NCBI GenBank assembly: GCA_937928595.1
Contig: CALGJV010000017.1
Coordinates: 64,744 to 128,743 of the forward strand
Source: an uncultured Phycisphaerae bacterium
GTDB taxonomy: Bacteria; Planctomycetota; Phycisphaerae; UBA1845; Fen-1342
Length of the DNA: 64,000 nucleotides
Reading direction: 5' to 3'
The translations under genes were made by a program, and so were the position numbers. Below the pieces are notes generated by a model that saw only the letters and a program-made list of their open reading frames with translations, was not told the DNA's origin and did not search any database. This document shows, piece after piece, positions 2,009 to 59,599 of this stretch; position 1 is the stretch's first letter; each line of letters starts with the position of its first letter.

Positions 2009-2788
2009 TTACGTCGGCTCCGTCAGCCGCATCAGCAGCTCCACGCTCGTCAGCAGGTCCAGCCGGTTGTGCTCGAGAACCGGCCCCAGCGGGCCGGCCG
2101 CGCCCGTTCGAACGAAGTGATGGAAAAGGTCGGGCACTTCGCTGCTCGGCACGTCGCCGACCCGCGTGCGACCGAGGACATGCCGTTCCAGCGTGACCAG
2201 CCGGCAGTTCGGCAAGCTTTCGCGCCAGCGTCGCCGGGCCGCCGGGAGCAGGTCCAGGTGGCGCGTCGGTCGGGTCAGCGGTACCCGGTGTACGGTCGCC
2301 CGGTCCCGCAGGAACGGCTCGTCGAACGCCCGCCCGTTGAACGTGATCCACGTGTCGCGGTCGGCCAGCAGTGCGGCCAGCTCGCGCAGCAGCGGTCCTT
2401 CCTCCGAGTAGTCGCGGGCCAGCAGCTGAATGACGCGCAGCGGCGGCCGGTCCGGCAGCACGACGCCCGCGAGGAACACCGGCGTGCCCGAGAAACCGCC
2501 GGTCTCGATGTCGAGCACGACAGCGCGAGCCGGATCCACGACGAGCGGCGGCCGCGTGTGCGGCACGCGCCGGAGTCCGGGCACAACTATGGCGCCAGCG
2601 GCCGCTGCTGCGCCGCCGAGCCGGTCGAAGTCCGTCTCGACGAGCCAGCAGGCGCCGCGCGCACCGCCGACCTCTCTCCCGCCGAGCACCTCGGCCAAGG
2701 TCTTCGCGCGGTGCGCCGGCGCGGCCACGGCCGGGCGATTCCGCCTGGTAATCCGCAGTTCGTCGAGGCGGTCGCGGTAGGATTTCAT
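2009..2788 (-). CDS. RNase H-like (YprB-type) predicted 3'-5' exonuclease domain protein
   Basis: VVLDIETGGF...ITFNGRAFDEPFL...LDLLP matches the DEDD-like RNase_H_2/YprB pattern. I chose the ATG at 2788 (MKSYRDRL), which overlaps the thiE stop as ATGA. Confidence 0.6.
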   Translation of the reverse strand: MKSYRDRLDELRITRRNRPAVAAPAHRAKTLAEVLGGREVGGARGACWLVETDFDRLGGAAAAAGAIVVPGLRRVPHTRPPLVVDPARAVVLDIETGGFSGTPVFLAGVVLPDRPPLRVIQLLARDYSEEGPLLRELAALLADRDTWITFNGRAFDEPFLRDRATVHRVPLTRPTRHLDLLPAARRRWRESLPNCRLVTLERHVLGRTRVGDVPSSEVPDLFHHFVRTGAAGPLGPVLEHNRLDLLTSVELLMRLTEPT

Positions 2789-3873
2789 GGGGACGCCTCG
2801 GCGTCGGCCCGCGGGCGCTGGGCCCACGCAGCGTCAATGGCCTGCCGGAAAGCACGGGCGGCCGCCTCCGGGTCGGCGACGCCGATGATCGCGCTGCATA
2901 CCGCGATCACGTCGGCCCCGGCCGCGATGACGACGCCCGCGTTCTCCGGCGTCATGCCGCCGATCGCGACCAGCGGCAGGGACGTCCGCGGCCGCACGGC
3001 GGCCAGCGTTCCCGGCCCGGCGATGTGGGGCTGCGGCTTGGTGGGGCTGTCGAACAGGGGGCCGACGGCGAGGTAGTCCGGCCGTTCCGCCGCCGCGGCG
3101 TCGAACTGCGCGGGCGTGTGTGTGCTCTTGCCCACCAGGATCGCGGCCCCGGCGATATGCCGCGCCTCGACGACGGCAAGGTCCGTCTGCCCGACATGCA
3201 GCACGTCGGCGCCGCAGAGTCGCGCGATGTCCGGCCGGTCATTGATCGCCAGCAGCGCCCCGTGAGCCTTGGTCAGTTCGCGCAGTTGCCGGGCGCGGCG
3301 CAGGAGCTCTGCGCCGTCAAGCGCCTTCTCGCGGAGCTGCATGCACTGGGCTCCGCCGCGCAGGGCCGCCTCAGCCGTCGTGAGCCAGGGGCCGTGGCAC
3401 AGCGCCTCCGTCAGCAACACGTAGAGCCGGACCGCGCGGAAACGCTGCCGCAGCGTACCCCGGAGCACGATGCGCTGCTCCAGTTCGTAAGCGGCATAGC
3501 GAAGCTGCTCCGCCGCCTGGGCCGCCGCGGGCGCCAGAATTTTCCCGTATTCCGCGAGACCGCGGGCAGCCTCGGTGAGGCGGCCGAAGGCGGCCCGCAC
3601 GACGGATTCGAGATCGTCGCGTTGGAGCTCGGCCGGCGTGCGGCTGTCCCGCCCGACGTCGCTCAGAATGTCGCGCGCGGCGAGCAGGGCGTCGGCCCCG
3701 CAGATTTCCACGATGCGGCGCAGGTCATGACGGCCGGCTTTGGCGGCCGCGGCCGCGTCGGCGTCGTCGCGGACGAAACGGGCGTAATCCTCGACGACCC
3801 GCAGGGCCTCGCGGGCCCGGTTGAGATTCACGTCGAGGATTCGCAGTACGTCGCCGTGCACGGGCAACTCCAC
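2785..3873 (-). CDS. thiE: Thiamine-phosphate synthase with about 150-aa N-terminal helical extension
   Basis: The C-terminal 210 aa (LYVLLTE...MQLREK...AINDRPDIA...HVGQTD...VGKSTH...YLAVGPLF.SPTK...VAIGGM) is canonical ThiE. I do not recognise the N-terminal part. Confidence 0.85.
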   Translation of the reverse strand: MELPVHGDVLRILDVNLNRAREALRVVEDYARFVRDDADAAAAAKAGRHDLRRIVEICGADALLAARDILSDVGRDSRTPAELQRDDLESVVRAAFGRLTEAARGLAEYGKILAPAAAQAAEQLRYAAYELEQRIVLRGTLRQRFRAVRLYVLLTEALCHGPWLTTAEAALRGGAQCMQLREKALDGAELLRRARQLRELTKAHGALLAINDRPDIARLCGADVLHVGQTDLAVVEARHIAGAAILVGKSTHTPAQFDAAAAERPDYLAVGPLFDSPTKPQPHIAGPGTLAAVRPRTSLPLVAIGGMTPENAGVVIAAGADVIAVCSAIIGVADPEAAARAFRQAIDAAWAQRPRADAEASP

Positions 3874-3891: not shown

Positions 3892-4377
3892 TCAGGCCGG
3901 CGCGGGGTCGGTCATCAGGATGCGCAGGACGTGCGACCCGCCGACCGCGACCGGGAAGGCACTGATCAGCAGGATCCAGCGGCCCAGCGTCCGGCCGAGC
4001 GTGGCGTTTCGGCGGCCGACGACTTCGCAAATGAGCACCACCAGCACCACGAGGCAGAACTTGAACAGGACCAGACCCGGCAGGTTGAACTGCTGGATGA
4101 TCCAGTCCGCAAGCACGTTCTGTTCCCGGCCGCCGGCGTGCAGGACCACCCAGGTGAACATGATGTCGAGCGACGAGAGGAAAACGTACCAGGTGTAGAC
4201 GGTGGGGTAAGTCGCGGCCTGGAGCAGCAGCGAGCGACCGGCCGGCGCAGAGGCTGCCGCCGCCGAGAGCTCGGCAGCCCGTGGCGGCGGGGGCGCGGAC
4301 GCCGGTTCGGCGGCGTCGGACGGAGACGCGCCGGGCGGATCCCAACGGGCCTCCGGATTCCGCCACTGGTCCGCCAC
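3892..4377 (-). CDS. Small polytopic membrane protein (DUF5658-like)
   Basis: A low-complexity Pro/Ala N-terminus is followed by 3-4 hydrophobic helices (TVYTWYVFLSSLDIMFTWVVL..., GLVLFKFCLVVLVVLICEVV, WILLISAFPVAVGG). It lies 18 nt upstream of thiE on the same strand. The family assignment is from memory only. Confidence 0.45.
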   Translation of the reverse strand: MADQWRNPEARWDPPGASPSDAAEPASAPPPPRAAELSAAAASAPAGRSLLLQAATYPTVYTWYVFLSSLDIMFTWVVLHAGGREQNVLADWIIQQFNLPGLVLFKFCLVVLVVLICEVVGRRNATLGRTLGRWILLISAFPVAVGGSHVLRILMTDPAPA

Positions 4378-4583
4378 GTTCCGCTCCGAACTGCTCCGCG
4401 GCTGAAACGCTTTGCCATCCCGACACGGCGGAGGCCGGGCCGACCCGCCGCTATTCTAAACGCTCGGCCACACGCCCGCCGAGAATAGTTTACGCAGCGA
4501 CGGCGGCGGGAACAGTGGGGGCCGGCAATAGGGAGTCGAGACGCCTTGCAGCCGGCGGCGGGATGACGCACGATGCGACCTGA

Positions 4584-4679
4584 GGGAGTGTCCCGGCGCC
4601 TGGTGGGCCGCGCGGCCTTCAAAGCCGTCGAGCCGCTGCACCCGCAGTGGCTGGTGGGTTCGATTCCCATCCACTCCCG
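4584..4679 (+). tRNA. selC: tRNA-Sec (anticodon UCA), no encoded CCA
   Basis: Hand-folded cloverleaf. Acceptor 4584-4590 pairs with 4672-4678. The acceptor plus T stack is 13 bp: 7+6, or 8+5 with one U.C mismatch. The D stem is 4594-4599/4605-4610 (6 bp, one G.G). The anticodon stem is 4612-4616/4624-4628, with loop CUUCAAA and anticodon U4619 C4620 A4621. The extra arm is 8 bp (4632-4639/4644-4651). The T loop is UUCGAUU. It lies inside the spurious 5' extension of ORF 4573..5415. Confidence 0.8.
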
Positions 4680-4725
4680 TTGCACACGGCGGAGGAAGCG
4701 TTTCCTGCGGGCGAAGGGTTCGAGC

Positions 4726-5415
4726 ATGCGGCGGATCGGGCGACGAATCGGATTGGCGGCGGCGGCGGTTTTCGGCGGTGTTCTGGCCGGGTGTGCAAGC
4801 GACGGCGCGGGGCCGGCGCGCGGCCTGACTCGCTGGACGTTCGACGGCCAGCCCCCCGGGGACCTCCCGCGCGGCTGGACGACAAAGGCGACGCACCCCG
4901 GCGACAAGCCAGCGCAGTGGGCGATCGTGCGCGAGCCTGAGGCACCAAGCCCGCCGCACGTGTTTGCGCTGACGCACACCGAGAACCGCGGCCACACGTA
5001 CAACCTCACGGTGGCCGACGGGCCGACGTTCGGCGACCTCGAGCTGTCCGTCCGCGTGAAGGCCGTGAGCGGGCAGGAGGACCAGGGCGGCGGCCCGGTG
5101 TGGCGCTACCAGGATGAGGACAACTACTACATCTGCCGAGTGAACCCGCTCGAGGGCAACTTTCGCGTGTACGTGGTGTCCGCGGGCAAGCGTCGGCAGC
5201 TGGACACCGCCGTCGTCCCGCTGCGGGCGGGGCAATGGTACGAGCTGCGCGTGCGAATGGTGGGCGAGCGCATCACGTGCAGCCTCGACGGCAAGCCGTG
5301 GCTGGAGGCGAGGGACGCGACGATCCCGCAGCCTGGCCGGGTGGGGCTGTGGACCAAGGCCGACGCGGCGAGCGTATTCGACGACCTCGTGGTCGGGCCG
5401 GCAGGGGCGCCGTAG
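4726..5415 (+). CDS. Secreted lipoprotein with concanavalin-A/LamG-like (DUF1080-like) jelly-roll domain
   Basis: Lipobox-type signal MRRIGRRIGLAAAAVFGGVLAGC. The beta-rich body shows the pattern DLELSVRVKA...GGGPVWRYQDEDNYY...VGLWTKADAASVFDDLVV. The start was moved to ATG 4726, downstream of the tRNA. Confidence 0.6.
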   Translation: MRRIGRRIGLAAAAVFGGVLAGCASDGAGPARGLTRWTFDGQPPGDLPRGWTTKATHPGDKPAQWAIVREPEAPSPPHVFALTHTENRGHTYNLTVADGPTFGDLELSVRVKAVSGQEDQGGGPVWRYQDEDNYYICRVNPLEGNFRVYVVSAGKRRQLDTAVVPLRAGQWYELRVRMVGERITCSLDGKPWLEARDATIPQPGRVGLWTKADAASVFDDLVVGPAGAP

Positions 5416-5416
5416 C

Positions 5417-6928
5417 TCAGCCGCGCGCGAGGTCCGCGAGAATCGCGCCCAGGAACCGATACGACTTCTGCACCGAATCGATGTACACGCGCTCGTCCGG
5501 GCTGTGGGCGCCCTTGATGTTGGGGCCCAGCGAGGCCATGTCGAGCCCGCCGACCTGCCGCCCGATGACCCCGCACTCGAGTCCGGCGTGGATCGCGGTC
5601 ACTTTCGCATCGGCGCTGAAAAGCTCCCGGTAGATGCGGCGGCAGGTGTTCAGCAGCGGCGATTTCGTGTCCGGCTGCCAGCCGGGATACGTGTGTCCGA
5701 ACTCCGCGGTGCCGCCGCCGAGCTGCGCGACGGCCGCAAGCTGCTCGCGCGCAGCCGCGAGCCGGGCGACCGAGGAACTGCGCGCGAGGCACCCGACGAC
5801 GAGCAGCCAGCCGTCGGGGTCGTTCGGATGGGGCTGCTGCACGATGGTTGCGACGTTATTGGAGGTCTGCACGAGGCCGGGCAGCTCCGCGTGCATCTCC
5901 ATGACGCCGTGCGGCAGCGCCGTCAGCACGCGCAGGAGGCGCTGCGTGTCGGCCGGTGACAGCGCCGTCGCGGGGCGCTCGCCGGTCCAGGGGGCGATCT
6001 CGATCTGCACGCCGGGCTCGCGGTGCTCGCGGGCAGTGGCAGCCTGTACTTCCGGGGCGGCGCGGGTGAGCTGCCGCAGCAGGCTCTTGCCGCCCACGAC
6101 GACGGCTGACGCCTCCCGCGCGATCGCGTTGCGCTTGCTGCCGCCCTGGATCCGGGCGATGCGCAGGCTGCGGCTGCCCGTGGCGGTCAGCGTCGCGACC
6201 AGCACTTTGTTCGCGTTGGCACGGTTCTCGTGGATGTCCGTCCCGGAATGCCCGCCGCGCAGGCCGCGGACGGCGACGCGGGCGAGTTCCGCCGTCGGCG
6301 GCAGAGGCCGCGGCCGGAGCTCCCATTTGAGCGACGTGTCGCCACCGCCGGCGCAGCCGATGTACAGCACGTCGTCTTCTTCGGAGTCGAGGTTGATGAG
6401 CCGGCGGCCGCGGAACGAATCGGGCGTCAGCCCCTCCGCTCCGCCCATGCCGGCCTCCTCGTCGAGGGTGCAAAGAATCTCGAGCGGCGGGTGGACGACG
6501 GCCGGGTCGGTCGCGGCGGCGAGGGCCATGGCGATACCGATGCCGTTGTCCGCGCCGAGGGTCGTTCCGGCGGCCCGGATGATCGCGGCGCCGGTCTCCG
6601 AGTCCTGGTCGCGGACGAGGCGGATCGGATCGCGGTCGAAGTCGTGCTCCGTGCCGGTGTTCTTCTCGCACACCATGTCGAGGTGGCCTTGAAGAACCGT
6701 GACAGGTGCGTTCTCGCAGCCGGGAGACGCGGGCACGTCGATCACGAGGTTGCCAGCGGCGTCGGTCCGGGATGTGAAGCCGGCTGCGGCGGCCAGTTCG
6801 CGCACGCGGTCACGCACGCGGGCCTCGTGCTTGGACGGACGCGGCACGGCGGCGATTTCGGCAAAATAGTGCCAGACGCGCGCCGGCTCGAGACCGGCCA
6901 CGACGGCGAGATTCTCGGCAGCGGACAT
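5417..6928 (-). CDS. pepD: Aminoacyl-histidine (Xaa-His) dipeptidase, M20C family
   Basis: WHYFAEIAAVPRPSKHE, LQGHLDMVCEKN, GADNGIG, NLDSEEDD and SPDERVYI are PepD signature blocks. The start is at MSAAEN (6928). Confidence 0.85.
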   Translation of the reverse strand: MSAAENLAVVAGLEPARVWHYFAEIAAVPRPSKHEARVRDRVRELAAAAGFTSRTDAAGNLVIDVPASPGCENAPVTVLQGHLDMVCEKNTGTEHDFDRDPIRLVRDQDSETGAAIIRAAGTTLGADNGIGIAMALAAATDPAVVHPPLEILCTLDEEAGMGGAEGLTPDSFRGRRLINLDSEEDDVLYIGCAGGGDTSLKWELRPRPLPPTAELARVAVRGLRGGHSGTDIHENRANANKVLVATLTATGSRSLRIARIQGGSKRNAIAREASAVVVGGKSLLRQLTRAAPEVQAATAREHREPGVQIEIAPWTGERPATALSPADTQRLLRVLTALPHGVMEMHAELPGLVQTSNNVATIVQQPHPNDPDGWLLVVGCLARSSSVARLAAAREQLAAVAQLGGGTAEFGHTYPGWQPDTKSPLLNTCRRIYRELFSADAKVTAIHAGLECGVIGRQVGGLDMASLGPNIKGAHSPDERVYIDSVQKSYRFLGAILADLARG

Positions 6929-7105
6929 GCAGGATCCTCGCGGGTTGTTGCGGGCCGCGGCGCGGCGCCGAGCGGCGATTCTACCGAAAGCCGCCCCGCG
7001 CGGCACGCGGGCCAGCTACCCTTTGGAATCCGAGGACCCGAAGCGACAACGCCCCCCGCGCAGGCGGGAGCGTATCCCTCGAAACGCCGCGTACCAGTCG
7101 GGTCG

Positions 7106-8524
7106 CTATTCCGTGGTGACGAATTCGACGCCCGCTCGCCAGGTATTTCCGCCGCCCGCCCGAACGCGTACGACGCGTCCCTTGCGGAAGAGGGTGCGGC
7201 CGCCGGGCTGGGCCAGTTCGATCACGAGCAGGTCGTTGCGCGAGAGCGGCCACGGCGTCTCGAGCTGGAGGCCGGACGGCGAGATGTCGATCGCCCGCAC
7301 CGTCACCCAGCCCTGTCCGGCGGGTCCGTCGGTCTTGCCCTGGCGAATGAACTGGATGCGCAGCATGAGGTCACAGGACTTGCGGGCGTGGCGGCGGCGT
7401 TCGCTGCCGACAAGCAGGGGGCGGCCGCGATCGGAACCGGTGCCTCGGTCCGGAACGACGGTCGTCTCGGGCAGGAACGTGCGCAGCGTGATCGAGCGAC
7501 CGGCCATGTCGCCGGTGGTTGCCGCCCGTCCCGGGTCCTTGGCGACCATGCCGCGGACGATCTGCGACCAGGCCGCGAACACGTCGCGATCGAAGTGATT
7601 GGGCACGCCTTCGGCCATCATGTCGAGCACCTTGTCCGGGGCGATGGGCCCGCGGTACGGGCGCGTGGCGGAGATGGCGTCGAAAACGTCGGCGACCGTG
7701 CAGATGCGCGCGGCCAGGCTGATTTGAGGATCAAGCAGACCGCGCGGGTAGCCGGTGCCGTCCAGGCGTTCGTGGTGGCAGTACGCCATGTCGACGACGA
7801 CGGCAGGGACTCCGGGCACGGCCCGCAGTTCCTCGGCCCCGGCCTCCGGATGCCGGATGAGAATCTTCCACTCGTCCGGCGTCAGCTTGCCTTCCTTGTT
7901 CAGGATTTCCACGGGGACACCGCGCTTGCCCACGTCGTGCAGCAGGCCGCCGAGAATCAGCGGTGCCTGGGCCACCGGGTCGGTAATACCCAGGGCCCGG
8001 GCGAGCACGCCGCAGTTCGCGCCGACGTTGACCATGTGGGTGGCGGTGTAGTAGTCGTGGCTCGACAGGTCGACGAGGTGTCCGAAGAGCTCCGGATCCT
8101 CGTGCGACCAGCGCGCGAAAGTGCGGCTGATATCCGTGACCGCTTCGAGCATCTCCGGCTGGCCCGGAAACGAGAGTACGTCCTCAATCATTCGCGAGCA
8201 CGCGGCACGCACCATGCGCATGCGTTCGAGACGTCGCTGCTCGGGGTTGTGGTACAGGTGGTCTAGTCGTGACGCGAGTTGGCGGCGGAAGGCCGCATGT
8301 TGCGCCAAGGGCACATAAAGGAACTCGTGCCCCTGCTCGGCCAGCCGTTGGCGGTCCGCGTCGTCGAAGGCCACGCCGGTCGAGCGGTAAAGCACCGGCA
8401 CGTCCATTGTGCCGACCCGGATGTACAGGTCCATCGACAGCGCCGCGGAATCTATGCTGTCCAGCGCGACCGGGAAGAACCTTGCTGTGGTGCTCGCCGC
8501 GCGCTCGGTCGCTACGGCATTCAT
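7106..8524 (-). CDS. HD-GYP domain c-di-GMP phosphodiesterase fused to a C-terminal PilZ domain
   Basis: HD-GYP motifs LLHDVGK and HHERLDGTGYP are present. The C-terminal 100 aa (7109-7408) carries RRHAR (RxxxR) and DISPSG (DxSxxG). Start chosen at MNAVATER (8524). Confidence 0.8.
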   Translation of the reverse strand: MNAVATERAASTTARFFPVALDSIDSAALSMDLYIRVGTMDVPVLYRSTGVAFDDADRQRLAEQGHEFLYVPLAQHAAFRRQLASRLDHLYHNPEQRRLERMRMVRAACSRMIEDVLSFPGQPEMLEAVTDISRTFARWSHEDPELFGHLVDLSSHDYYTATHMVNVGANCGVLARALGITDPVAQAPLILGGLLHDVGKRGVPVEILNKEGKLTPDEWKILIRHPEAGAEELRAVPGVPAVVVDMAYCHHERLDGTGYPRGLLDPQISLAARICTVADVFDAISATRPYRGPIAPDKVLDMMAEGVPNHFDRDVFAAWSQIVRGMVAKDPGRAATTGDMAGRSITLRTFLPETTVVPDRGTGSDRGRPLLVGSERRRHARKSCDLMLRIQFIRQGKTDGPAGQGWVTVRAIDISPSGLQLETPWPLSRNDLLVIELAQPGGRTLFRKGRVVRVRAGGGNTWRAGVEFVTTE

Positions 8525-10275: not shown

Positions 10276-11142
10276 CTAGTACTCCGCCGGAAGGTCGCGG
10301 AGTTGTGCGAACGTGAACACCGGCCCGTCCTTGCAGACGTAGAGCTTGCCGACGTTGCACCGTCCGCACTTGCCCACGCCGCACTTCATGCGGTTCTCAA
10401 GCGTAGTAAAGATGTTCTCGGGCTGAAAGCCGAGCTTGGTCAGCACGGGCAGCGTGAGCTTGATCATGATCGGCGGACCGCACACGATCGCGATCGTGTC
10501 GGCGGCGCTGGGGCCCACCTGCTCGACGACGGTCGGGACGAAGCCGACCCGGCCTTTCCAGTCGGGGGTCTGGCCGCCGGGATCGACGGTCGTGTAGAGG
10601 TTCACGTCGGGGCGGGCGTCCCACTCGGCCAGCTCGTGCTTGTAGACAAGGTCGGCGACGGTGCGCGCGCCGTAGACGATCGTGACGTCCTTGTAGCGGT
10701 CGCGGAGGTCGAGGCAGTTCCAGATCACGCAGCGCATCGGCGGCAGCGCGATGCCGCCGGCGATGAACAGCAGGTTCTTGCCGTGCCACTGCTCGATCGG
10801 AAAGATGTTCCCATACGGCCCGCGGAAGCCGATGATGTCGCCCTCATCGCGGTCGGCCAGCGCGGACGTCACACGTCCGACCTGCCGGAAGGTGCATTCG
10901 ATGTAGCCCTTGCGCGTCGGCGGCGAGGCGATGCAGAAGGTGCTCTCGCCCTCGCCGTAGACCGAGTACTCGCCGAACTGCCCGGCCTTGAAGTCGAAGG
11001 CGGCGGCGTCGGCCGGGTCGACGAACTCGAGCCGGAAGGTCTTCACCGCGGGGGCCTCGTCCGTGACCTTCGCGATGCGCATGCGGTAGGGCGTGTACAG
11101 GCTGCGGCGCGCCGGCGCCGCGGGAGCTGCGATGGTACTCAT
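10276..11142 (-). CDS. FAD/NAD(P)-binding oxidoreductase with C-terminal [2Fe-2S] (PyrK/AsrB/sulfhydrogenase-gamma type; FlxA-like)
   Basis: FRLEF...FKAGQF beta-barrel, LLFIAGGIALPP nucleotide-binding block, C-terminal CGVGKCGRCNVG. The ATG at 11142 overlaps the upstream stop (ATGA). The rest of ORF 10276..11865 is a non-coding extension. Confidence 0.8.
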   Translation of the reverse strand: MSTIAAPAAPARRSLYTPYRMRIAKVTDEAPAVKTFRLEFVDPADAAAFDFKAGQFGEYSVYGEGESTFCIASPPTRKGYIECTFRQVGRVTSALADRDEGDIIGFRGPYGNIFPIEQWHGKNLLFIAGGIALPPMRCVIWNCLDLRDRYKDVTIVYGARTVADLVYKHELAEWDARPDVNLYTTVDPGGQTPDWKGRVGFVPTVVEQVGPSAADTIAIVCGPPIMIKLTLPVLTKLGFQPENIFTTLENRMKCGVGKCGRCNVGKLYVCKDGPVFTFAQLRDLPAEY

Positions 11143-12158
11143 ACGGCCGTCTCCGCCAGTTGCTGCGCGTGCTGCGCGAGGTTCATGTCCACGGGGCAGG
11201 CGCGCGAGCACCGCCCGCAGCCCACGCACCCCAGCACGCCCAGCCGCTCGGGCTGATACGCGAACTTGTGCATGACCCGCTGCCGCCAGCGCTCGCTCTG
11301 CTTCGTGCGCGGGTTGTGGCCGGAGGCGTGCAGCGTGAACAGCGCCAGACCGCAGGAATCCCAGCACCGCAGGCGGACGCCGTGGTAGCGGTCGCGCTCG
11401 TCGGTGATGTCGAAGCAGGAGCAGGTCGGGCAGACGAAAGCGCACGCGCCACACCCCAGGCAGCGAAGCGCCTGCTCCTGCCACGCCGCCGGGTGATTGA
11501 ACAGCGCGGGCAGCTTCGCGCCGAGCTGCCGCGCGTCGAAACGCGGAGGTATCTGCGCGAGCGCCGCGTCCTTGCCGTTGCCGCGGTGCGGCTCGAGCAG
11601 CTCGCCGGCCAGCCGTGCGACGGCCTGGCCGCGCTCGGTCAGGATCTCGGCCAGGAAATGCGTCGCCCCGATCGGCGTCAGCAGAATATCGCTGCCTCGG
11701 GGATCGCCGGGGCCGCCCCCGACGGACGTGCAGAAGCAGTACGCGTCGCCCTGTGTGCAGCTCAGGCCGATGATCGTGAGATTGGCCCGCTTGCTCTCGA
11801 ACGGCAGGTCGGGCGTGTCCCACGTGAAGACGGCCTCCAGCGTCGCGAAGCTCGCGGCGTCGCACGGATGGACGCCGAACAGGACGGTCGGCGCTGCGTC
11901 CGGCGCCGGTTCGGCAACCTGCACGTCCTTGCCCTGAAGCGCGAATTGCAGCAGCGGCTCGTAGGGGGGAAAAACGGCGCTCTTGGCCGACGTGCGGGTC
12001 TGCACGTAGTCCAATGCGACCTCGTCCGGCCGCGTCACCCGCTCGAAGCCGACCCGGTCGCCGTGCCGCACGGGAGCGAGGATGCGCCGTCCGTCGGCGG
12101 CCAGCCGCTCGAACAGCGGGCCGAGGTTCTGGCGAGAGAGGATCCGTTGCTCGGTCAT
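11139..12158 (-). CDS. 4Fe-4S dicluster protein (AsrA/sulfhydrogenase-beta type; FlxB-like)
   Basis: CLGCGACAFVCPTCSC and CVGCGRCSRACP cluster motifs. The N-terminal region is typical of HydB/AsrA-like subunits. Confidence 0.75.
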   Translation of the reverse strand: MTEQRILSRQNLGPLFERLAADGRRILAPVRHGDRVGFERVTRPDEVALDYVQTRTSAKSAVFPPYEPLLQFALQGKDVQVAEPAPDAAPTVLFGVHPCDAASFATLEAVFTWDTPDLPFESKRANLTIIGLSCTQGDAYCFCTSVGGGPGDPRGSDILLTPIGATHFLAEILTERGQAVARLAGELLEPHRGNGKDAALAQIPPRFDARQLGAKLPALFNHPAAWQEQALRCLGCGACAFVCPTCSCFDITDERDRYHGVRLRCWDSCGLALFTLHASGHNPRTKQSERWRQRVMHKFAYQPERLGVLGCVGCGRCSRACPVDMNLAQHAQQLAETAV

Positions 12159-12162
12159 GACC

Positions 12163-12969
12163 TCACCGGATGTATTCCTGCTTGTCGTCGGGCTTGAAGG
12201 AGGCCAGGGCGTAATCCTTGCGGACGCTGTAGCCCGGCTCGGCGCCGAACTGCGTCCGGGCCTCCTCGGCCAGCACGTGGTTCAGCAGGTCGAGCCGGAT
12301 ACCCTCGGGGCAGGCGTCGCTGCACGAGCCGCAATCGACGCAACGGCCCGCGAGGTGCATCGCCCGCGCGATGTTCCACTCGAGATTGCCGAGCGGGTCC
12401 GATGAAACCGGAATCCACTGCGGCTGATTGGCCTCGGTGATGCACCGGGCGCAGTAGCACAGCGGGCAGGCGGCCCGACAGGCGTAGCACTTGATGCAGC
12501 GGGCGAACTCGCCGGCCCAGTAGGCCTGCCGCTCGCCGAGCGGCAGGGCGGCGATGCGGTCGAGTTCCTGCCGGTCCGCGTCGCTCAGGCCGCGGGGCAA
12601 CCGCGCGACGAGCTCCTCGATGGCGGCCAGCGTCGGCAGCTCGGTGACTGCGCCGTCGTCGGCAACGAAGAGCGCGACGACCCGGCCGTCCGCGAGTTGG
12701 TTCTCGGCCGCCAGCTGCAGCAGCGCCCGGAGCGTGCTGCGGCGCGCGACCAGCGCCAGCCTGCCGAGCGCGCGGACCTCGGGTTTCTGGAGGTAGGTCG
12801 CGAGGTTCTGCCGGCAGTGCTCGTTCCAGATCAGCCCGTCGGCCTCGGCCGCCGTCCGGACGAAGCACGGCCGGGCGCGGTCGGGCTCGGACCCCGCGGC
12901 GTAGCCCAGCACGGCCTGCACCGTGCCGGCGGCGAGCAGTTCGCGAGCGCGCTGGCGCAACGCTTCCAT
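12163..12969 (-). CDS. 4Fe-4S dicluster protein (FlxC-like)
   Basis: CIKCYACRAACPLCYC and CVDCGSCSDACP motifs. The ATG at 12969 shares one nucleotide with the mvhD stop (TGATG). The upstream part of ORF 12163..13374 is out-of-gene. Confidence 0.7.
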   Translation of the reverse strand: MEALRQRARELLAAGTVQAVLGYAAGSEPDRARPCFVRTAAEADGLIWNEHCRQNLATYLQKPEVRALGRLALVARRSTLRALLQLAAENQLADGRVVALFVADDGAVTELPTLAAIEELVARLPRGLSDADRQELDRIAALPLGERQAYWAGEFARCIKCYACRAACPLCYCARCITEANQPQWIPVSSDPLGNLEWNIARAMHLAGRCVDCGSCSDACPEGIRLDLLNHVLAEEARTQFGAEPGYSVRKDYALASFKPDDKQEYIR

Positions 12970-13430
12970 CAGGCCACCTCCGCCGGCTGCGGCCGGCCGT
13001 CGAGCCGCTTGGGGAACGCGTCGTACGGTCCCAGGGCTTGGATCTTCGTTTTCACGTCGTTGACCAGCTCGGCCCACTTCGCGCCTTCGGCGGCGGAGAC
13101 CCAAGCGAAATGCACGCGGCGGAGATCGACGCCGACGAAGTCGAGCAGGCGGCGAAACAGCGTCCAGCGCCGCCGGGCGTGGAAGTTGCCCGCGGTGTAG
13201 TGGCAGTCGCCCGGGTGGCAGCCCGAGACGATCACGCCGTCGGCGCCCTTGCCGAACGCCTGGAGCAGCAGCATGAAGTCGATGCGGCCGGTGCAGGGCA
13301 GGCGGATCAGGCGGACGTTGGGAGCGTACTTGATGCGGCTCGTGCCGGTCAGGTCCGCGCCGGCGTAGGTGCACCAGTTGCAGACGAAGGCGACGAGCTT
13401 TGGTTCGAAGGCACTCACAGCGAACTCCAT
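12969..13430 (-). CDS. mvhD: Methyl-viologen-reducing hydrogenase delta-subunit-like protein (MvhD/FlxD)
   Basis: KLVAFVCNWCTYAGAD...LPCTGRID...VIVSGCHPGDCHY is the MvhD/FlpD Cys pattern. Confidence 0.85.
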   Translation of the reverse strand: MEFAVSAFEPKLVAFVCNWCTYAGADLTGTSRIKYAPNVRLIRLPCTGRIDFMLLLQAFGKGADGVIVSGCHPGDCHYTAGNFHARRRWTLFRRLLDFVGVDLRRVHFAWVSAAEGAKWAELVNDVKTKIQALGPYDAFPKRLDGRPQPAEVA

Positions 13431-13525
13431 CCGGGGCTCGGAGGCGGAAAGCGCGAAGTGACCCGCGCCGTCGGCGTCATGCTCGTCGCCTTCCCACTTC
13501 CGATTTCGCCATTCTCAGATCACCC

Positions 13526-15517
13526 TCACAGCGCCACCAACTCCGCGAACACCTGCTCGTTCGTGAAGCCCTGGAGGTCGATCGACTTCGACCGGCACAG
13601 CGCCACGCACGTCCCGCAGCCCTGGCAGACGCCCTGGTTGACCCGCGCGACCGTCTTGAGCACGTTGCCGTTGCGGTCCTTGATCTCCTCGCGCTCGATG
13701 GCCTGGTACGGGCAGGCCGTCTCGCACAGGAAGCAGCCGACGCAGGTCGAAAACAGCGGCGGGGCCGTGCGGTTGACGACCGCCACGACCGGCTCGCGCG
13801 ACAGCTCGTCCTTCGAGAACAGCCCGATGACCTTGCTGGCGGCGCCGGACGCCTGCGCCACCGTCTCGGGGATGTCCTTGGGGGCCTGGCAGGCGCCGGC
13901 CACGAAGATGCCGGCCGTGTTCATCTCGACCGGCCGCAGCTTCGGATGCGCCTCGTTGAGGAAGCGATCGCCGTCGTAACTGATCTTCATCTTCTGGGCG
14001 AGCGCCTCGGCGTCGGGCTGCGGGACCATGGCCGTCGCGAGCACGACCAGATCGGCCGCGATCTCGACCGGGCGACTGTTGAGCAGCGTATCAACGCCCT
14101 TGACGATTAGCTTGCCGTTCTTCTCGTAGATCCGCGACACGCGGCCGCGGATGTAGCTGACCTGGTCTTCCTCGATCGCGCGGCGAACGAACTCCTCGTA
14201 CATCTTTCCGCCCGCGCGGATGTCCATGTAGAACACGTACGGCCGGCCGTGGTGCACCTTGTGCTTGTACAGCATCGCGTGTTTGGCCGTGTACATGCAG
14301 CAGATCTTCGAGCAGTAGTGCAGGCCCTTGGCGGGGTCGCGCGAGCCCGCGCAGGCGATGAAGACGACCGTTTCGGGCACCTGGCCGTCGGACGGGCGCC
14401 GGATGGCGCCGAGCGTCGGGCCGGAGGCGGACGCGAGCCGCTCGAATTGCAGCCCGGTGATGACGTCCTTGTAGCGGCCGTAGCCGTACTCGGGGAAGAA
14501 ATCGGTGCCCTTGACCTCGTAGCCGGTCGCGACGACGACGGCCCCGACCGCCACCTCGACGAGCAGGTCCTCCTGGTCGTAGCGCAGGGCCTTGGTCGGG
14601 CAGACGCGCTCGCACAGCTTGCACTTGCCGGTGCGGTAGTAGGTGCAGTGCGCCCGGTCGATGACCGGCTTGTTGGGCACGGCCTGCGGGAACGGGACGT
14701 AGATCGCGGTGCGGTGGCCGAGGTGGGCGTTGAACTCGCTGGGGATCTTCTTCGTCGGGCACTTCTGGATGCACGCCCCGCAGCCGGTGCAGGTGGCCTC
14801 GTCGATGCCGCGGGCCTTCTTGCGGATCACGGCCTTGAAGTTGCCGATGAAGCCTTCGAGGCTTTCAAGCTCGGAGTACGTATACAGCCGGATGTTCGGG
14901 TGCTGCGCCACCTCGACCATCCGCGGCGTGAGGATGCATTGCGAGCAGTCGAGCGTCGGGAAGGTCTCGGACAGCTGCGCCATGTGCCCGCCGATCGAGG
15001 CCTCGCGCTCGACCAGGACGACCGGATGCCCGGCGTTGGCGATGTCCAGCGCGGCCTGGATGCCAGCGATGCCGCCGCCCAGCACCAGCGCCGTCTTCGT
15101 GATCGGCACGTTGATCGGGAACAGCGGCCGGTTGCGCTTGACCTTCTCGACCATCACCCGCACGAGGTCGATCGCCTTCTCGGTCGTCTCGGGCAGCTTC
15201 TCGTGCACCCACGAGCAGTGCTCGCGGAGGTTGGCCATTTCGCACAGGAACGCGTTGAGCCCCGCCTCGGCGCAGGCCCGGCGGAAGGTCGGCTCGTGCA
15301 TCCGCGGCGAGCAGGCGCCCACCACGACGCCCGTGAGCTTCTTCTCCCGGATCGCCTCCTTGATGAGGTTCTGCCCCGGGTCGGAGCACATGTACTTGTA
15401 GTCCACCGCGTGCACCACCCCGGGCAGCTCGCCCGCGGCCTTCGCGACGGCGGCCGCATCGACCGTGGCGCCGATGTTCTCACCGCAGTGACAGATGAAG
15501 ACGCCGATCCGCGGCAT
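13526..15517 (-). CDS. hdrA: Heterodisulfide reductase subunit A-like flavoprotein
   Basis: Starts MPRIGVFICHCGENIG. FAD site VLGGGIAGIQAAL. Ferredoxin-type motifs CTGCGACIQKCP, CKLCERVCP, CVGCFLCETACP and CQGCGTCVALC. The 413 aa upstream in ORF 13526..16756 overlap hdrB out of frame and are rejected. Confidence 0.9.
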   Translation of the reverse strand: MPRIGVFICHCGENIGATVDAAAVAKAAGELPGVVHAVDYKYMCSDPGQNLIKEAIREKKLTGVVVGACSPRMHEPTFRRACAEAGLNAFLCEMANLREHCSWVHEKLPETTEKAIDLVRVMVEKVKRNRPLFPINVPITKTALVLGGGIAGIQAALDIANAGHPVVLVEREASIGGHMAQLSETFPTLDCSQCILTPRMVEVAQHPNIRLYTYSELESLEGFIGNFKAVIRKKARGIDEATCTGCGACIQKCPTKKIPSEFNAHLGHRTAIYVPFPQAVPNKPVIDRAHCTYYRTGKCKLCERVCPTKALRYDQEDLLVEVAVGAVVVATGYEVKGTDFFPEYGYGRYKDVITGLQFERLASASGPTLGAIRRPSDGQVPETVVFIACAGSRDPAKGLHYCSKICCMYTAKHAMLYKHKVHHGRPYVFYMDIRAGGKMYEEFVRRAIEEDQVSYIRGRVSRIYEKNGKLIVKGVDTLLNSRPVEIAADLVVLATAMVPQPDAEALAQKMKISYDGDRFLNEAHPKLRPVEMNTAGIFVAGACQAPKDIPETVAQASGAASKVIGLFSKDELSREPVVAVVNRTAPPLFSTCVGCFLCETACPYQAIEREEIKDRNGNVLKTVARVNQGVCQGCGTCVALCRSKSIDLQGFTNEQVFAELVAL

Positions 15518-15519
15518 GG

Positions 15520-16401
15520 TCAGTTTTCCTTGGGCGCGGCGGCCGGCGCGGCCGCACCGGGGGCGAAGCGCACCGGCACATGGTGCCGGTGCAGGCCGAG
15601 CGCACGCTCCGAGAGGCCGAGCGCCAGGCCGACCAGTTGCGTGATGTACAGCACGGGCAGCGCGTACGAGACGCCGCGGTGCCGCTCGATCGCCGGGCGA
15701 CGGAGATCGAGGTTCGTATGGCACAGCGGACAGGCCACGACCAGCGCTTCGGCGCCGCGCTCCGCGGCGTCGGCGACGATGCGGCCGGCCAGCTCGGCCA
15801 CCGTCGCGGTGCGGGACACGGACAGCGCCGCGCCGCAGCAGTCGATCTTGAACGCCCAGTCGAGCGGGGTCGCGCCGGCGCTGGCGACGATGGCCTCCAT
15901 TTCCTGCGGGTCCTCCGGCCGGGCGCAGGTCGTGAGGCTTGCCGGCCGGGTCAGGTAGCAGCCGTAGTAGCAGGCCACCTTCCGGAGAAACGGCACGCTG
16001 GCTTTCGCGCGGATCGTCGGAGCGGCGCGGCCGAGCACGTCGACCACGCTGACGACCTTCGTGCTGCCGACGTAGTCCAGCTCGATGATGCTCGTGATCT
16101 CCTGACGCAGCGCCTCGTTCGCGAGCAGGTCGCGCCGCGTGGCCGCGAGTCGGCTGTAGCACGCCGAGCACGGCACGAGCAGTTCGTCGAATCCGGCCCG
16201 CTCGGCCAGGGCGAGTGTGCGGGCCGGCAACGCCAGCGCGAGCTTGTGGTTGAGGCTGTGAGCGGCCGTGGCGCCGCAGCAGTTCCAGTCCGGCACCTCG
16301 CACAACTCCAGGTCCAGCAGCGGCGCGACGGCCTGAAGCGACTCGTTGTACTCGCGGGCCGAGCTCTCGAGCGAGCAGCCGGGGAAGTAGCCGAGTTTCA
16401 T
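15520..16401 (-). CDS. hdrB: Heterodisulfide reductase subunit B-like (two CCG domains)
   Basis: MKLGYFPGCS..., WNCCGA and IDCCGA CCG motifs, ACPLCH. There is a 2-nt gap to hdrA. Confidence 0.9.
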   Translation of the reverse strand: MKLGYFPGCSLESSAREYNESLQAVAPLLDLELCEVPDWNCCGATAAHSLNHKLALALPARTLALAERAGFDELLVPCSACYSRLAATRRDLLANEALRQEITSIIELDYVGSTKVVSVVDVLGRAAPTIRAKASVPFLRKVACYYGCYLTRPASLTTCARPEDPQEMEAIVASAGATPLDWAFKIDCCGAALSVSRTATVAELAGRIVADAAERGAEALVVACPLCHTNLDLRRPAIERHRGVSYALPVLYITQLVGLALGLSERALGLHRHHVPVRFAPGAAAPAAAPKEN

Positions 16402-16991
16402 GCGTGATCCGCCTTGTTCTCGGGGGCCGCGGCATCGCAGCGGTCGAAGATGCGGCGGACGGCGTCGGTGTCCGCGACCTTGTGCGGCCGGAGACTGAGC
16501 TTGCCGCGCTGAAGGAGTTGCGGTGTGAGCAGGACGTCCTGGAGCAGGTGGCCGGTCTTGAGCTTGTAAGAGGCGACCAGCCCGACCTCGTGCAGCCGAC
16601 CGCCCTTGCGGACGGAGGCGAGCAGCGACTCGTAGAACGCCAAGATGTCCTTGGCTTTCGGATGGACGAGGCCCCGCCGCCGCGACTCCTGCCGCAGGTG
16701 GTCCATGATCTTCGGGATATCGACCTCCTGCGGGCAGCGCGCTGCGCAGGTTTCACAGGTCAGGCACAGCCAAATCGACAGCGCCCGCAGGGCCTCTTCC
16801 TCCATCTCGGGCAGGTTGAGCTGGAGCAGCCGCAGAATCTGGTTGGGGGTGTAGTCCATCTCGGCCGCGAGCGGGCAGCCGGCCGCACACTTGCCGCACT
16901 GGTAACACTGGAAAACGGACTCACCCGTGGCCTCGCGCACACGCTCGGGAAACGTCGGGGCGTGCGGCGCGGCGTGAGACGCACTGGACAT
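16398..16991 (-). CDS. hdrC: Heterodisulfide reductase subunit C-like
   Basis: CYQCGKCAAGCP and CLTCETCAARCP motifs. It overlaps hdrB by 4 nt. Confidence 0.85.
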   Translation of the reverse strand: MSSASHAAPHAPTFPERVREATGESVFQCYQCGKCAAGCPLAAEMDYTPNQILRLLQLNLPEMEEEALRALSIWLCLTCETCAARCPQEVDIPKIMDHLRQESRRRGLVHPKAKDILAFYESLLASVRKGGRLHEVGLVASYKLKTGHLLQDVLLTPQLLQRGKLSLRPHKVADTDAVRRIFDRCDAAAPENKADHA

Positions 16992-20522: not shown

Positions 20523-20822
20523 TCAGACGAGCTTCTGCTCGACGCTGCGGACCTTGTCTTCCATGGATTGCGGGCGGTCCGTGCGGGTGCCGACGCGCAG
20601 GGTCGTGGCGACGCGGGGGGCGCCCATGCCGTGGACGACTTCGTGGCACTTCCGAACGGCCGCGAACACGGCGTCCCATTCGCCTTCGATGTTGGTGCCG
20701 TAGGCGTGGAGGTGCGTCTTGAGCCCCGCGTCGCGGAGGACGCGCTCGCAGGCGGCGACGTACGGCGAGAGCGAGATGCCCACGCCGAGCGGAATCACGC
20801 AGAGATCGACGATGACGTGCAT
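20523..20822 (-). CDS. MTH1187/YkoF-like (DUF77) small thiamine-binding-fold protein
   Basis: MHVIVDLCVIPLGVGISLSPYVAACERVL...YGTNIEGEW...KCHE matches the about 100-aa MTH1187 family pattern. Confidence 0.7.
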   Translation of the reverse strand: MHVIVDLCVIPLGVGISLSPYVAACERVLRDAGLKTHLHAYGTNIEGEWDAVFAAVRKCHEVVHGMGAPRVATTLRVGTRTDRPQSMEDKVRSVEQKLV

Positions 20823-20840
20823 GGGGCGATCCTCGGACGG

Positions 20841-21398
20841 CTAGCGCTCCGCCCGCGCGGGGGCGGGCGGGCGCGGCAACCATAGGGCGGCCAGCGACAG
20901 GCACCGCGAGCGCGCGAAGATGAGGTAGAGGGCGCCGGCAAGCAGCGCGCAGTTCTCGGCGAGCTTGCGGCAGACGAAGACGACGCCGGTGCCGCAGCCG
21001 CAGTCGAACGACACGTCGCAGAACGAGGCGTACGACGCGCCGGGAGCGTGGTAGAGCGTCAGGCCGCGGTGCAGGATCAGGGGCGTGAAGAACAGAAGCA
21101 TGAGCGCGATCAGCAGCGCAGCGCCGCGTCGGCCGACGCCGAGAAGCACGGCCGCGGCGCACAGCAACTCGAGCCACGGCAGCGTCACGGCGAGCATGTT
21201 CACCAGCAGGGCCGGCTCGGTGGGCGCGAGGTTGTAAACGTGGATCTGCTTGAGGAACTCGACCGGGTCGCGAAGTTTCATGAGCGACAAGTAAGCGAAC
21301 ATCAGCCCGACGCCCAGCCGGGCGAGCACGGTGAGCCCGTGCCAGACCGGGTGGATGCGGGCAGGGGCGGTCACGGGGAGGGCGGTCGCGGTCGTCAT
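20841..21398 (-). CDS. MauE/DoxX-superfamily redox-associated membrane protein
   Basis: Four hydrophobic helices, MKLRDPVEF, and the DCGCG motif (FDCGCGTG) typical of MauE. The ATG at 21398 overlaps the rhodanese stop by 4 nt. Confidence 0.7.
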   Translation of the reverse strand: MTTATALPVTAPARIHPVWHGLTVLARLGVGLMFAYLSLMKLRDPVEFLKQIHVYNLAPTEPALLVNMLAVTLPWLELLCAAAVLLGVGRRGAALLIALMLLFFTPLILHRGLTLYHAPGASYASFCDVSFDCGCGTGVVFVCRKLAENCALLAGALYLIFARSRCLSLAALWLPRPPAPARAER

Positions 21399-22003
21399 GG
21401 CTGGGCCTGCTCGATCTCGGCGCTGCGCCGGACCCACTCCTCCCAGCCGTGGGCGTACAGGTAGATGTTGCCCTGCGGGACACCGTAGCGGAGCAGCTCG
21501 CGGCAGACATGGAGGCTGTCCTCGCAGGCGCCGCCGTTGCAGTACACGATGATCTTCTCCGCGGCCATCGCCCGGTCGACGACCTGCGGCACATCGCCCC
21601 GCCAGTAATCGCACTGGATCGCGCCCGGGATGTGCCCCGCGCGATAGGCGTCGTCGTTGCGGGCGTCGAGGAAGATGTACATGTGGATCTGTGTCAGCGG
21701 GTCCGCGAGCAGCGCCGCGACTTCCTCGTACGCTAACTCCTGGAACTCGTGCGCGACGTGGGCCGACGGCGTCGTGCGGCTTGCGCCCGACGTGCCCGGC
21801 TCGGATGCGGGCTGGGTCGCACCGGCGGGGACAGCCGGCCGGGTCGGTAGCCCCGGGGCGACCGGGACCGCCTTGGGCGGGGCGTAGTTGCGGTGGAGGT
21901 CGATGCGGCTGCGTCCCCGAAAGGGGTTGACCGCCATGCCGATGGCCGTGGCGGCGAAGATCAGCAGCACTGCGGACAATAGGATGGACTTCGACGCTCC
22001 CAT
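21395..22003 (-). CDS. Membrane-anchored rhodanese-like domain protein
   Basis: N-terminal TM (ILLSAVLLIFAATAIGMAV), a Pro-rich linker, then rhodanese blocks FLDARNDDAYRAGHIPGA and IIVYCNGGACEDS (active-site Cys loop). Confidence 0.75.
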   Translation of the reverse strand: MGASKSILLSAVLLIFAATAIGMAVNPFRGRSRIDLHRNYAPPKAVPVAPGLPTRPAVPAGATQPASEPGTSGASRTTPSAHVAHEFQELAYEEVAALLADPLTQIHMYIFLDARNDDAYRAGHIPGAIQCDYWRGDVPQVVDRAMAAEKIIVYCNGGACEDSLHVCRELLRYGVPQGNIYLYAHGWEEWVRRSAEIEQAQP

Positions 22004-22073
22004 GCGTACTCCCGCAACCGTTGCTCGCGTGGCGGGCTGGCGGAATCATTCGCGGGGCCGCCCACCTGCTCCA

Positions 22074-50094: not shown

Positions 50095-50177
50095 GCCGAA
50101 GTGGCGGAATGGCAGACGCGCGGGATTCAAAATCCCGTGGCCGCAAGGCCGTGAGGGTTCGAGTCCCTCCTTCGGTA
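50095..50177 (+). tRNA. tRNA-Leu (anticodon CAA), type II, no encoded CCA
   Basis: Acceptor GCCGAAG/CTTCGGT (G1.U72 wobble). Anticodon stem CGGGA/TCCCG with loop UUCAAAA (CAA at 50128-50130). Long extra arm TGGCCGCAAGGCCGTG. T arm GAGGG-TTCGAGT-CCCTC. Discriminator A. Confidence 0.85.
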
Positions 50178-57303: not shown

Positions 57304-57344
57304 CATATGGCATGGCCGGGAACCCGAGCCGGAAGGACAGGACG

Positions 57345-58628: not shown

Positions 58629-58658
58629 AGCCCGCCCGCGAACCCGGCTGCAAGAAAT

Positions 58659-59525: not shown

Positions 59526-59599
59526 CGCGGGCTGCGCTACGTTCTGCTTTGCCGGCGTGGGCGCGGCAGCCCGATCCGCCGGCCGGAGTCACGAGCCGT

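Follow-up and report, generated by a model that had tools for sequence, protein, structure and literature searches.

A probable selC gene encoding a tRNA-Sec of the known bacterial kind in a GC-rich bacterium of the Phycisphaerae

Bacterial tRNA-Sec is defined by an 8/5 fold with a 13-bp acceptor/T helix, by the discriminator base G73, by a D stem of 6 bp closed by a D loop of 4 nt, and by a very long variable arm, but helices of 12 bp and bulges in the D stem are on record as deviations from this scheme (PMC5330540). The 12-bp (7/5) variants were described by Secmarker and include the Cloacimonetes type, those of the Epsilonproteobacteria and others (PMC5330540). Roles have been assigned to the variable arm, to G73 and to the acceptor stem of eight layers, and the arm and G73 are identity elements for SerRS (PMC7609411). 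Two other groups of tRNAs resemble tRNA-Sec in overall shape, and some of their members carry a UCA anticodon as well. In one of them, tRNAReC (SelC*), cysteine is the amino acid inserted at SECIS-directed UGA codons and U is the discriminator, whereas SelC has G or A (PMC13582414). The other group, the allo-tRNAs, has an acceptor branch of 12 bp with 8/4 or 9/3 geometry (PMC5389517). At the genome level, the trait of Sec decoding has SelB and SelC as its signature genes (PMC1273633).

The locus studied here lies in a stretch of 64 kb with a GC content of 70.0%, which is called the window throughout. A tRNA-Sec of 96 nt had been proposed at 4584-4679 in a preliminary description. When the window was analyzed with ARAGORN, a tRNA-SeC with the anticodon tca was found at exactly 4584-4679 of the forward strand. 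ARAGORN reported two tRNAs in the window, and the tRNA-SeC is one of them. With Infernal/Rfam, the tRNA-Sec family RF01852 covered 4584-4678(+) from model position 1 to 91 of 91. The score was 65.1 bits, compared with a gathering score of 47, and the E-value was 5.5e-11, computed from a search of all 64 kb of the window with 4227 families. The covariance model and ARAGORN are therefore in agreement that the locus scores as tRNA-Sec. Folding of the single sequence 4584-4679 yielded a cloverleaf with -54.7 kcal/mol (z=-4.47), and none of 200 dinucleotide shuffles folded as well. Taken together with the covariation described below, the sequence at 4584-4679(+) can be regarded with high confidence as the selC gene of a Phycisphaerae (Planctomycetota) bacterium of about 70% GC, predicted to encode a functional tRNA-Sec(UCA). 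As judged from its sequence, this selC is almost certainly of the ordinary, known bacterial kind and looks functional. Because standard tools (ARAGORN, Infernal/Rfam) detect the tRNA above threshold, it opens no new question; its value is practical and concerns annotation, it is not conceptual, and no discovery is claimed.

The acceptor stem is formed by a 5′ strand at 4584-4591 and a 3′ strand at 4671-4679, both read directly from the sequence, the latter comprising C88 to C95 and the discriminator. G1 to G7 are paired with 4672-4678 (C89-C95), and U8 (4591) stands opposite C88 (4671), so that the mismatch proposed earlier is indeed present and makes up a non-Watson-Crick eighth acceptor layer. 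The discriminator is G4679 (G96, equivalent to G73), and it is followed by TTG rather than by CCA. A linker of two nucleotides, C9 and C10, leads from the acceptor 5′ strand to the D arm (4594-4610), which in both the Rfam alignment and the MFE fold has a 6-bp stem and the 4-nt loop UGGU (4601-4604). The stem consists of the pairs C11-G27, G12-C26, G13-C25, C14-G24, C16-G23 and C17-G22. The long D stem with a short loop was thus described correctly, with the addition of one bulged G, G15 (4598). The anticodon arm (4612-4628) was found by ARAGORN, Rfam and folding alike. Its stem has five pairs that run from G29·U45 to C33-G41, and the possible sixth pair, C28/C46, is mismatched. Its loop CUUCAAA is located at 4617-4623, as had been read before, and contains the anticodon UCA at 4619-4621. 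The long variable arm (4631-4652) has 9 bp, from A48-U69 to C56-G61, and a 4-nt loop in the MFE fold. Eight of these pairs are conserved across relatives and correspond to the extra arm of 8 bp that had been proposed; the ninth is found in the present sequence. The T arm (4654-4670; Rfam alignment and fold) has a 5-bp stem and the loop UUCGAUU, and the first pair of its stem is a wobble, G4654·U4670 (G71·U87).

The hallmarks of tRNA-Sec are thus present, i.e., UCA in a loop of 7 nt, six pairs in the D stem around a loop of 4 nt, a variable arm of 9 bp, and G73. The features shared with the tRNA-Sec of E. coli, which is of the 8/5 type, are UCA in a CUUCAAA loop, the 13 layers, the D stem of 6 bp and its 4-nt loop, the very long variable arm, and G73. 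There are four differences from the E. coli tRNA: the eighth layer is U·C and not Watson-Crick, the D stem contains a bulged G, five pairs instead of six make up the anticodon stem, and the gene does not encode CCA. The Phycisphaerae relatives have all of these departures from the E. coli archetype in common. Like the 12-bp (7/5) variants, some of which also have D-stem bulges (PMC5330540), the tRNA is imperfect when compared with the 8+5 helix. In contrast to these variants, it has eight acceptor layers, and therefore the geometry of 13 layers is retained.

For the analysis of relatives, one genome per GTDB species was scanned with a pattern that fixed the acceptor stem, the anticodon loop and the T arm of selC. 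At least 120 homologous tRNA loci were found. More than 60 of the 120 matches listed carry planctomycete labels (Planctomycetota, Phycisphaerae/-ales/-aceae, Isosphaeraceae, Gemmataceae, Planctomycetaceae), and the remaining listed loci belong mostly to Gemmatimonadaceae, Nitrospirota and Bacillota. An identical tRNA was not present among the GTDB matches listed, and a scan of JGI metagenomes for the exact sequence yielded 0 matches. The best of the matches listed were L107 and L046, each with 84 of 96 nt identical, and the next best formed a tight group whose labels are Phycisphaerae, Phycisphaerales or Phycisphaeraceae. Four of these relatives (L107, L046, L014 and L116; 81-84 of 96 nt identical) agree with selC in U8/C88, in the bulge of the D stem and in the anticodon arm. 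As U8/C88 and the bulged D stem are common to the closest relatives, they are best viewed as traits of the lineage and not as signs of decay; the predicted anticodon stem of five pairs is likewise a lineage trait common to the Phycisphaerae relatives. Where the closest relatives among the matches listed differ from selC in the sequences of the variable arm and the D stem, they do so by compensatory substitutions. The discriminator is G in all 120 matches listed, and in 16 of 16 close relatives inspected it is followed by T, with CCA not encoded. The gene adds one data point for widespread Sec decoding in the Planctomycetota.

The covariation analysis was based on an alignment of 114 distinct, non-identical homologues. 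RNAalifold recovered the cloverleaf, and compensatory double changes were found in 17 of the 30 consensus pairs. The fraction of paired cells was 93.3%, whereas shuffles gave 75.1% and slid partners 39-55%. For covariation, the score was 0.494 versus 0.148, and none of 500 shuffles reached the observed value. The contributions of the individual helices were not uniform. Compensatory changes occurred in all eight consensus pairs of the variable arm and in 4 of the 5 D-stem pairs of the consensus structure, and double changes in 4 of the 5 pairs of the anticodon stem. The opening G·U of the T stem was found in 97 of the 114 relatives. The search pattern had fixed the acceptor stem and, in the T stem, the three G-C pairs, and their invariance is therefore uninformative. 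The 96-nt tRNA-Sec is therefore backed not only by the exact coordinates from ARAGORN but also by the covariance model and by covariation.

These results also bear on the possibility that a tRNA-like fold arose by chance within a real protein-coding gene. An ORF of 280 aa at 4573..5415 does span the tRNA, and this ORF was annotated in a public gene call on Logan contig L002. However, translation from the ATG at 4726, downstream of the tRNA, gives the lipoprotein signal peptide MRRIGRRIGLAAAAVFGGVLAGC, and the real gene at 4726..5415(+) encodes a lipoprotein with a DUF1080 / 3-keto-disaccharide hydrolase fold (Pfam PF06439, lipobox signal peptide). The true start thus bears out the earlier view that the 5′ part of the ORF is a spurious extension that masks the tRNA, and this extension should be removed from the annotation. 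The start at ATG 4726, the covariance-model E-value and the covarying homologues among at least 120 genomes refute a chance fold, which is left with next to no probability.

For the acceptor and T helices, a stack of 13 layers had been proposed, with either a 7+6 or an 8+5 division. The layer count stood, as there are 13 stacked layers under either geometry; in the 8/5 case these are seven pairs, the U·C layer and five pairs. With regard to the division, 8/5 with an often non-Watson-Crick eighth layer is weakly favoured over 7/6 by the comparison of sequences, for three reasons. First, the standard pairs at 8:88 are varied (UA in 17, CG in 10, AU in 2 and GC in 2 of the 114 sequences). Second, G70 is indifferent to its partner: of the 114 sequences, 33 have G-C at the alternative pair 70:88 (G4653-C4671 in selC) and 78 have no pair there, covariation between the two positions is almost absent, and G70 is conserved whatever base stands opposite. 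Third, the linker of 2 nt, C9 and C10, fits the 8/5 division. In 83 of the 114 sequences the bases at 8:88 do not form a standard pair, with G·G and U·C as the main cases. In selC it is U·C, and therefore the acceptor plus T helix has 12 standard pairs. The subgroup with U·C might fold into 7/6 through G70-C88. The eighth layer is U·C here and G·G in many other Planctomycetota. It could be proposed that the tRNA-Sec of the Phycisphaerae type is a distinct structural subclass with an obligatorily non-Watson-Crick eighth layer, a bulged D stem and an anticodon stem of 5 bp. We regard this as improbable; if it were true, acceptance by SelB and rejection by EF-Tu would depart from the E. coli paradigm.

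The eighth layer is also the point from which a general opal suppressor could be argued, i.e., a tRNA with seven Watson-Crick acceptor pairs whose seryl form is taken by EF-Tu, so that UGA is read genome-wide. The layer is U·C instead of a base pair in selC, and a standard pair at 8:88 is absent in 83 of the 114 relatives too. Nevertheless, the number of nucleotides still yields 13 stacked layers, and the opening G·U wobble of the T stem, which we take to lie in the region of the EF-Tu antideterminants in E. coli, is retained. In addition, the lineage has SelB, and so, probably, does the organism, as described below. The use of stop codons in the window is also at odds with suppression. TGA is the commonest stop and ends 32 of 45 coding-like segments, and general read-through would thus be highly deleterious. 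We therefore assign a minimal probability to a general suppressor. The dominance of TGA as a stop further implies that any Sec decoding is site-specific and SECIS-dependent and is not a reassignment of UGA.

A Sec-like tRNA of another identity, tRNAReC (SelC*) or an allo-tRNA, had to be considered as well, because a UCA anticodon and a Sec-like shape occur also in some tRNAReC (PMC13582414). However, tRNAReC is charged with cysteine and is defined by U as the discriminator, whereas selC has G4679, which is the SerRS/SelC criterion. The branch of allo-tRNAs has 12 bp in an 8/4 or 9/3 arrangement, in contrast to the T stem of 5 bp and the 13 layers found here. The Rfam score for tRNA-Sec is also well over the threshold. 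Another identity is thus extremely unlikely.

Whether the Sec machinery is present was analyzed with tblastn and the SelA, SelB and SelD proteins of E. coli. In many of the homologous loci selA, selB and/or selD were found within a few kb of the tRNA, and these sel-linked loci include the Phycisphaeraceae/Phycisphaerales loci L004, L039, L073 and L077. In the Phycisphaerae subgroup to which the window belongs, selC is unlinked from sel genes. An in-frame TGA was aligned with Cys17, the catalytic cysteine of SelD in E. coli (motif AG*AAK), in 21 of 28 selC-linked selD genes, which shows that UGA is recoded to Sec in those lineages. In addition to these GTDB loci, a metagenome contig (L133) encodes a DUF255 protein that is 61% identical to that of the window. 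It also encodes a complete SelB with the GTP_EFTU domain, the SelB beta-barrel and the SelB winged helix (Pfam). Homologues of the L133 SelB include many proteins named by NCBI 'selenocysteine-specific translation elongation factor [Phycisphaerae bacterium]', that of strain RAS1 among them. The Sec machinery of the Phycisphaerae lineage is thus already annotated in public records, and judged from these gene sequences it exists in the lineage.

A candidate for the SelB of the organism itself was found on Logan contig ERR9287890_81450 (L207). The encoded protein (P0097) has 645 aa and intact G motifs and is 61% identical to the SelB of L133. The same run also yielded the contigs L001 and L002, which are the window's own contigs and are located inside the window. 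The base composition of L207 is closely similar to that of the window, with a GC content of 70.5% versus 70.0%. The tetranucleotide distance between L207 and the window is 0.013. Chunks of the window have distances of 0.010-0.012 to the rest of the window, whereas the distance to the window is at least 0.018 for all 42 GC-rich control loci. After GC correction, the tetranucleotide correlation between L207 and the window is 0.927, which is in the range of the positive controls, but is matched by two related controls (0.93). The selB gene on L207 probably comes from the genome of the window, an assignment that is based on the shared run and on composition and not on physical linkage. A further SelB homologue, P0106, was rejected as that of the window organism because it comes from a different sample. 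Taken together, selB is probably present in the same organism as selC, and selenocysteine is very probably inserted there at a small number of special UGA codons. The earlier claim that the genome probably recodes UGA as Sec is therefore well supported by the sel genes of the relatives and by the selB gene of the same run, but has to be restricted to specific sites.

The selB gene also weighs against the possibility that selC is an orphan or relic, i.e., that the tRNA survived the loss of selA, selB and selD and that selenoproteins are not made. A relic could be suspected on the grounds that neither a sel gene nor a selenoprotein gene was found in the 64 kb, that selC is unlinked from sel genes in the Phycisphaerae subgroup of the window, and that a U·C layer and a mismatched sixth pair in the anticodon stem are found in the tRNA. 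These apparent defects are, however, lineage traits common to the relatives. All helices are intact, and the differences from relatives are compensatory; maintenance of every helix through compensatory change makes decay unlikely. Furthermore, SelB is widespread in the Phycisphaerae, and the selB gene from the same run is intact and matches in composition. A relic is therefore very unlikely.

For a functional selC, the established bacterial pathway offers a mechanism in which charging, conversion and decoding are deduced from the identity elements of the tRNA. The primary transcript would be trimmed, and CCA would be added post-transcriptionally, because it is not encoded. The variable arm and G73 would then serve as identity elements for serylation of the tRNA by SerRS. 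SelA would turn Ser-tRNA-Sec into Sec-tRNA-Sec with selenophosphate supplied by SelD. The acceptor/T helix of 13 layers would be recognized by SelB and rejected by EF-Tu, and SelB would bring the tRNA to a small set of UGA codons, each followed by a SECIS hairpin. All other UGA codons would stay stops.

The window itself was searched for sel and selenoprotein genes. As the GC content is about 70%, genes were called by codon-position GC, and about 60 ORFs were annotated with Pfam. SelA, SelB and SelD were absent from the window, both among the approximately 60 ORFs scanned with Pfam and in tblastn searches with the E. coli proteins, and a credible gene with an in-frame TGA at a Cys-homologous position was not found in the 64 kb. 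Both of these negative results had been reported in the preliminary description, and the Pfam and tblastn searches as well as the TGA scans and junction checks, all of which came out empty, left them unchanged. Three same-frame TGA codons with coding sequence on both sides turned out to be gene boundaries, namely between DUF5658 and ThiD2-ThiE (3894), between an M24 peptidase and an HD-GYP/PilZ protein (8702), and between citrate synthase and a PrpB-like protein (58626). A more sensitive scan considered every TGA in the window with at least 25 stop-free codons of coding-like GC3/GC2 on each side; it yielded only antisense shadow frames and again the boundary at 3894. A MauE/DoxX ORF followed by an in-frame segment of high GC3 was rejected because its stop codon is TAG and the segment represents a gene of its own, for a thiamine-binding protein. 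It had been stated that HdrA and MvhD are Cys forms here. In line with this, the ORFs of the HdrA-like protein (1076 aa) and of FlpD/MvhD in the Flx/Hdr-like cluster both run through without interruption, and the match to the FlpD profile extends over positions 2-123 of 123.

A DUF255/thioredoxin gene is truncated at the edge of the window, and its redox motif falls just outside. It was rejected as a selenoprotein gene, as 77 of 77 relatives have the motif CHWCH with TGC/TGT codons. The TGA scan also revealed no credible selenoprotein gene in the selC loci of close relatives, on L207 or on L001. We infer that selenoprotein genes exist elsewhere in the genome. The tRNA marks this genome as that of a probable Sec user, and annotators should therefore look for genes interrupted by UGA, for example selD and formate dehydrogenase.

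Upstream of selC, the genes for DUF5658, ThiD2-ThiE and an RNase-H-fold protein are encoded on the opposite strand. The order selC-DUF5658-thiD2/thiE is kept in two loci of Phycisphaerae MAGs from GTDB, L046 and L116, with protein identities of 62-64%; the two thus share with the window this neighbourhood in addition to a tRNA-Sec of the Phycisphaerae type. The use of selC as an integration site for a genomic island was considered and rejected. A second copy of the 3′ end of the tRNA was not found in the window, which means that a signature of island integration is lacking, and none of the ORFs scanned in the window contained an integrase domain.

With respect to expression, a weak promoter had been proposed upstream of selC, and this proposal stood only in part. 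The two hexamers TTGCAG (4546-4551) and CACGAT (4569-4574) are present on the forward strand with a spacer of 17 nt, and the element (4546..4574) ends 9 nt before the tRNA. Each hexamer matches the consensus at 3 of 6 positions (6 of 12 in total), and a consensus scan reported neither a sigma-70 promoter nor an intrinsic terminator within 4300-4850. The upstream regions of the relatives do not align. The candidate, although unproven, is positionally plausible, because several relatives carry sigma-70-like boxes at the equivalent position. These boxes end 10-20 nt before the tRNA and are much better than the selC candidate, for example, TTGACC-N16-TAGATT in L010, TTGTCA-N17-TAATCT in L121, and TTGACT-N17-TAAGTG in L059.

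The selenocysteine machinery was followed beyond the window, which carries the tRNA-Sec gene (selC) at 4584-4679 on the forward strand. A selB gene was found at positions 6026-7963 of ERR9287890_81450, a Logan contig of the same sequencing run that probably derives from the same organism. It stands alone, as the flanking 6 kb or so in each direction contain neither selA nor selD, and therefore the sel genes appear to be dispersed in this genome. The neighboring genes encode HIT, VTT-domain, MFS, PMT_2, and TerC proteins as well as a succinate-dehydrogenase-type flavoprotein.

In relatives with a homologous tRNA-Sec, the selD genes adjoining it did not yield a uniform picture at the position of the catalytic residue. 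Among the matches listed, 21 of 28 selD genes have TGA (Sec) at this position, whereas the other seven have TGC (Cys). All seven Cys forms are from Gemmatimonadota MAGs, and the remaining Gemmatimonadaceae as well as every Planctomycetota example among these matches have TGA. For this dimorphism, loci L009, L019, L047, L050, L096, L101, and L105 were set against L015, L025, L076, L082, L093, L112, and L119.

Locus L007 (DATKKS010000147.1, 5044-7810) comprises selD, with TGA at the position of Cys17, the catalytic residue of E. coli SelD, a tRNA-Sec, and a selB-like gene. The contig has a GC content of 73% and was binned as 'Candidatus Saccharimonadales'. Both a Sec system and such a high GC content are expected to be out of character for this group, and thus the contig may be mis-binned. 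In locus L023 (CBDFIW010000004.1, 1-1305), selA is followed by a tRNA-Sec, on a contig of 3.26 Mb labeled Bryobacterales, which belong to the Acidobacteriota. This tRNA-Sec is of a sequence type common to several Planctomycetaceae/Phycisphaerales MAGs (GTCAGCACGCC... D arm), which suggests either a taxonomic mislabel or acquisition of the sel locus by horizontal transfer.

Within the window, a public gene call contains a 280-aa ORF (4573-5415; 2489-3331 on the Logan contig L002) that spans the tRNA-Sec. The preliminary description had regarded its 5' extension over the tRNA as spurious, and this was borne out: a lipoprotein signal peptide begins at ATG 4726, which is the true start of the gene. 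TGA is the dominant stop codon of the 45 coding-like segments (TGA 32, TAG 11, TAA 2).

An electron-bifurcation-type cluster, Flx/Hdr-like, is located at 10276-16991 on the reverse strand, and none of its ORFs is interrupted by UGA. It encodes Fer4_22, Fer4, and Fer4_8 proteins (11139-12158, 12163 to about 12960, and 16398-16991, respectively), together with an NAD-binding/DHODB Fe-S protein (about 10276-11140), FlpD/MvhD (12969-13430), and an HdrA-like protein (13526-16756). The HdrA-like protein is unusually long (1076 aa), and about 550 N-terminal residues have no Pfam match.

A run of small sulfur/thiamine-related genes (20523-23432, reverse strand) includes genes for a radical SAM protein (22074-23432) and a rhodanese (21395-22003). 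The membrane protein encoded in this run is of the MauE/DoxX type (about 20841-21390), and the thiamine-binding protein is YkoF-like (20523-20822). A Sec codon at the end of the MauE gene was ruled out, because the stop codon is TAG. A second tRNA, tRNA-Leu(CAA), is located at 50095-50177 on the forward strand (Rfam tRNA, 57.5 bits). On the same strand, a methylcitrate-cycle-like cluster (55948-60742) comprises prpD (55948-57303), a PrpB-like PEP-mutase/isocitrate-lyase-family gene (58659-59525), and two citrate-synthase-family genes (57345-58628 and 59549-60742).
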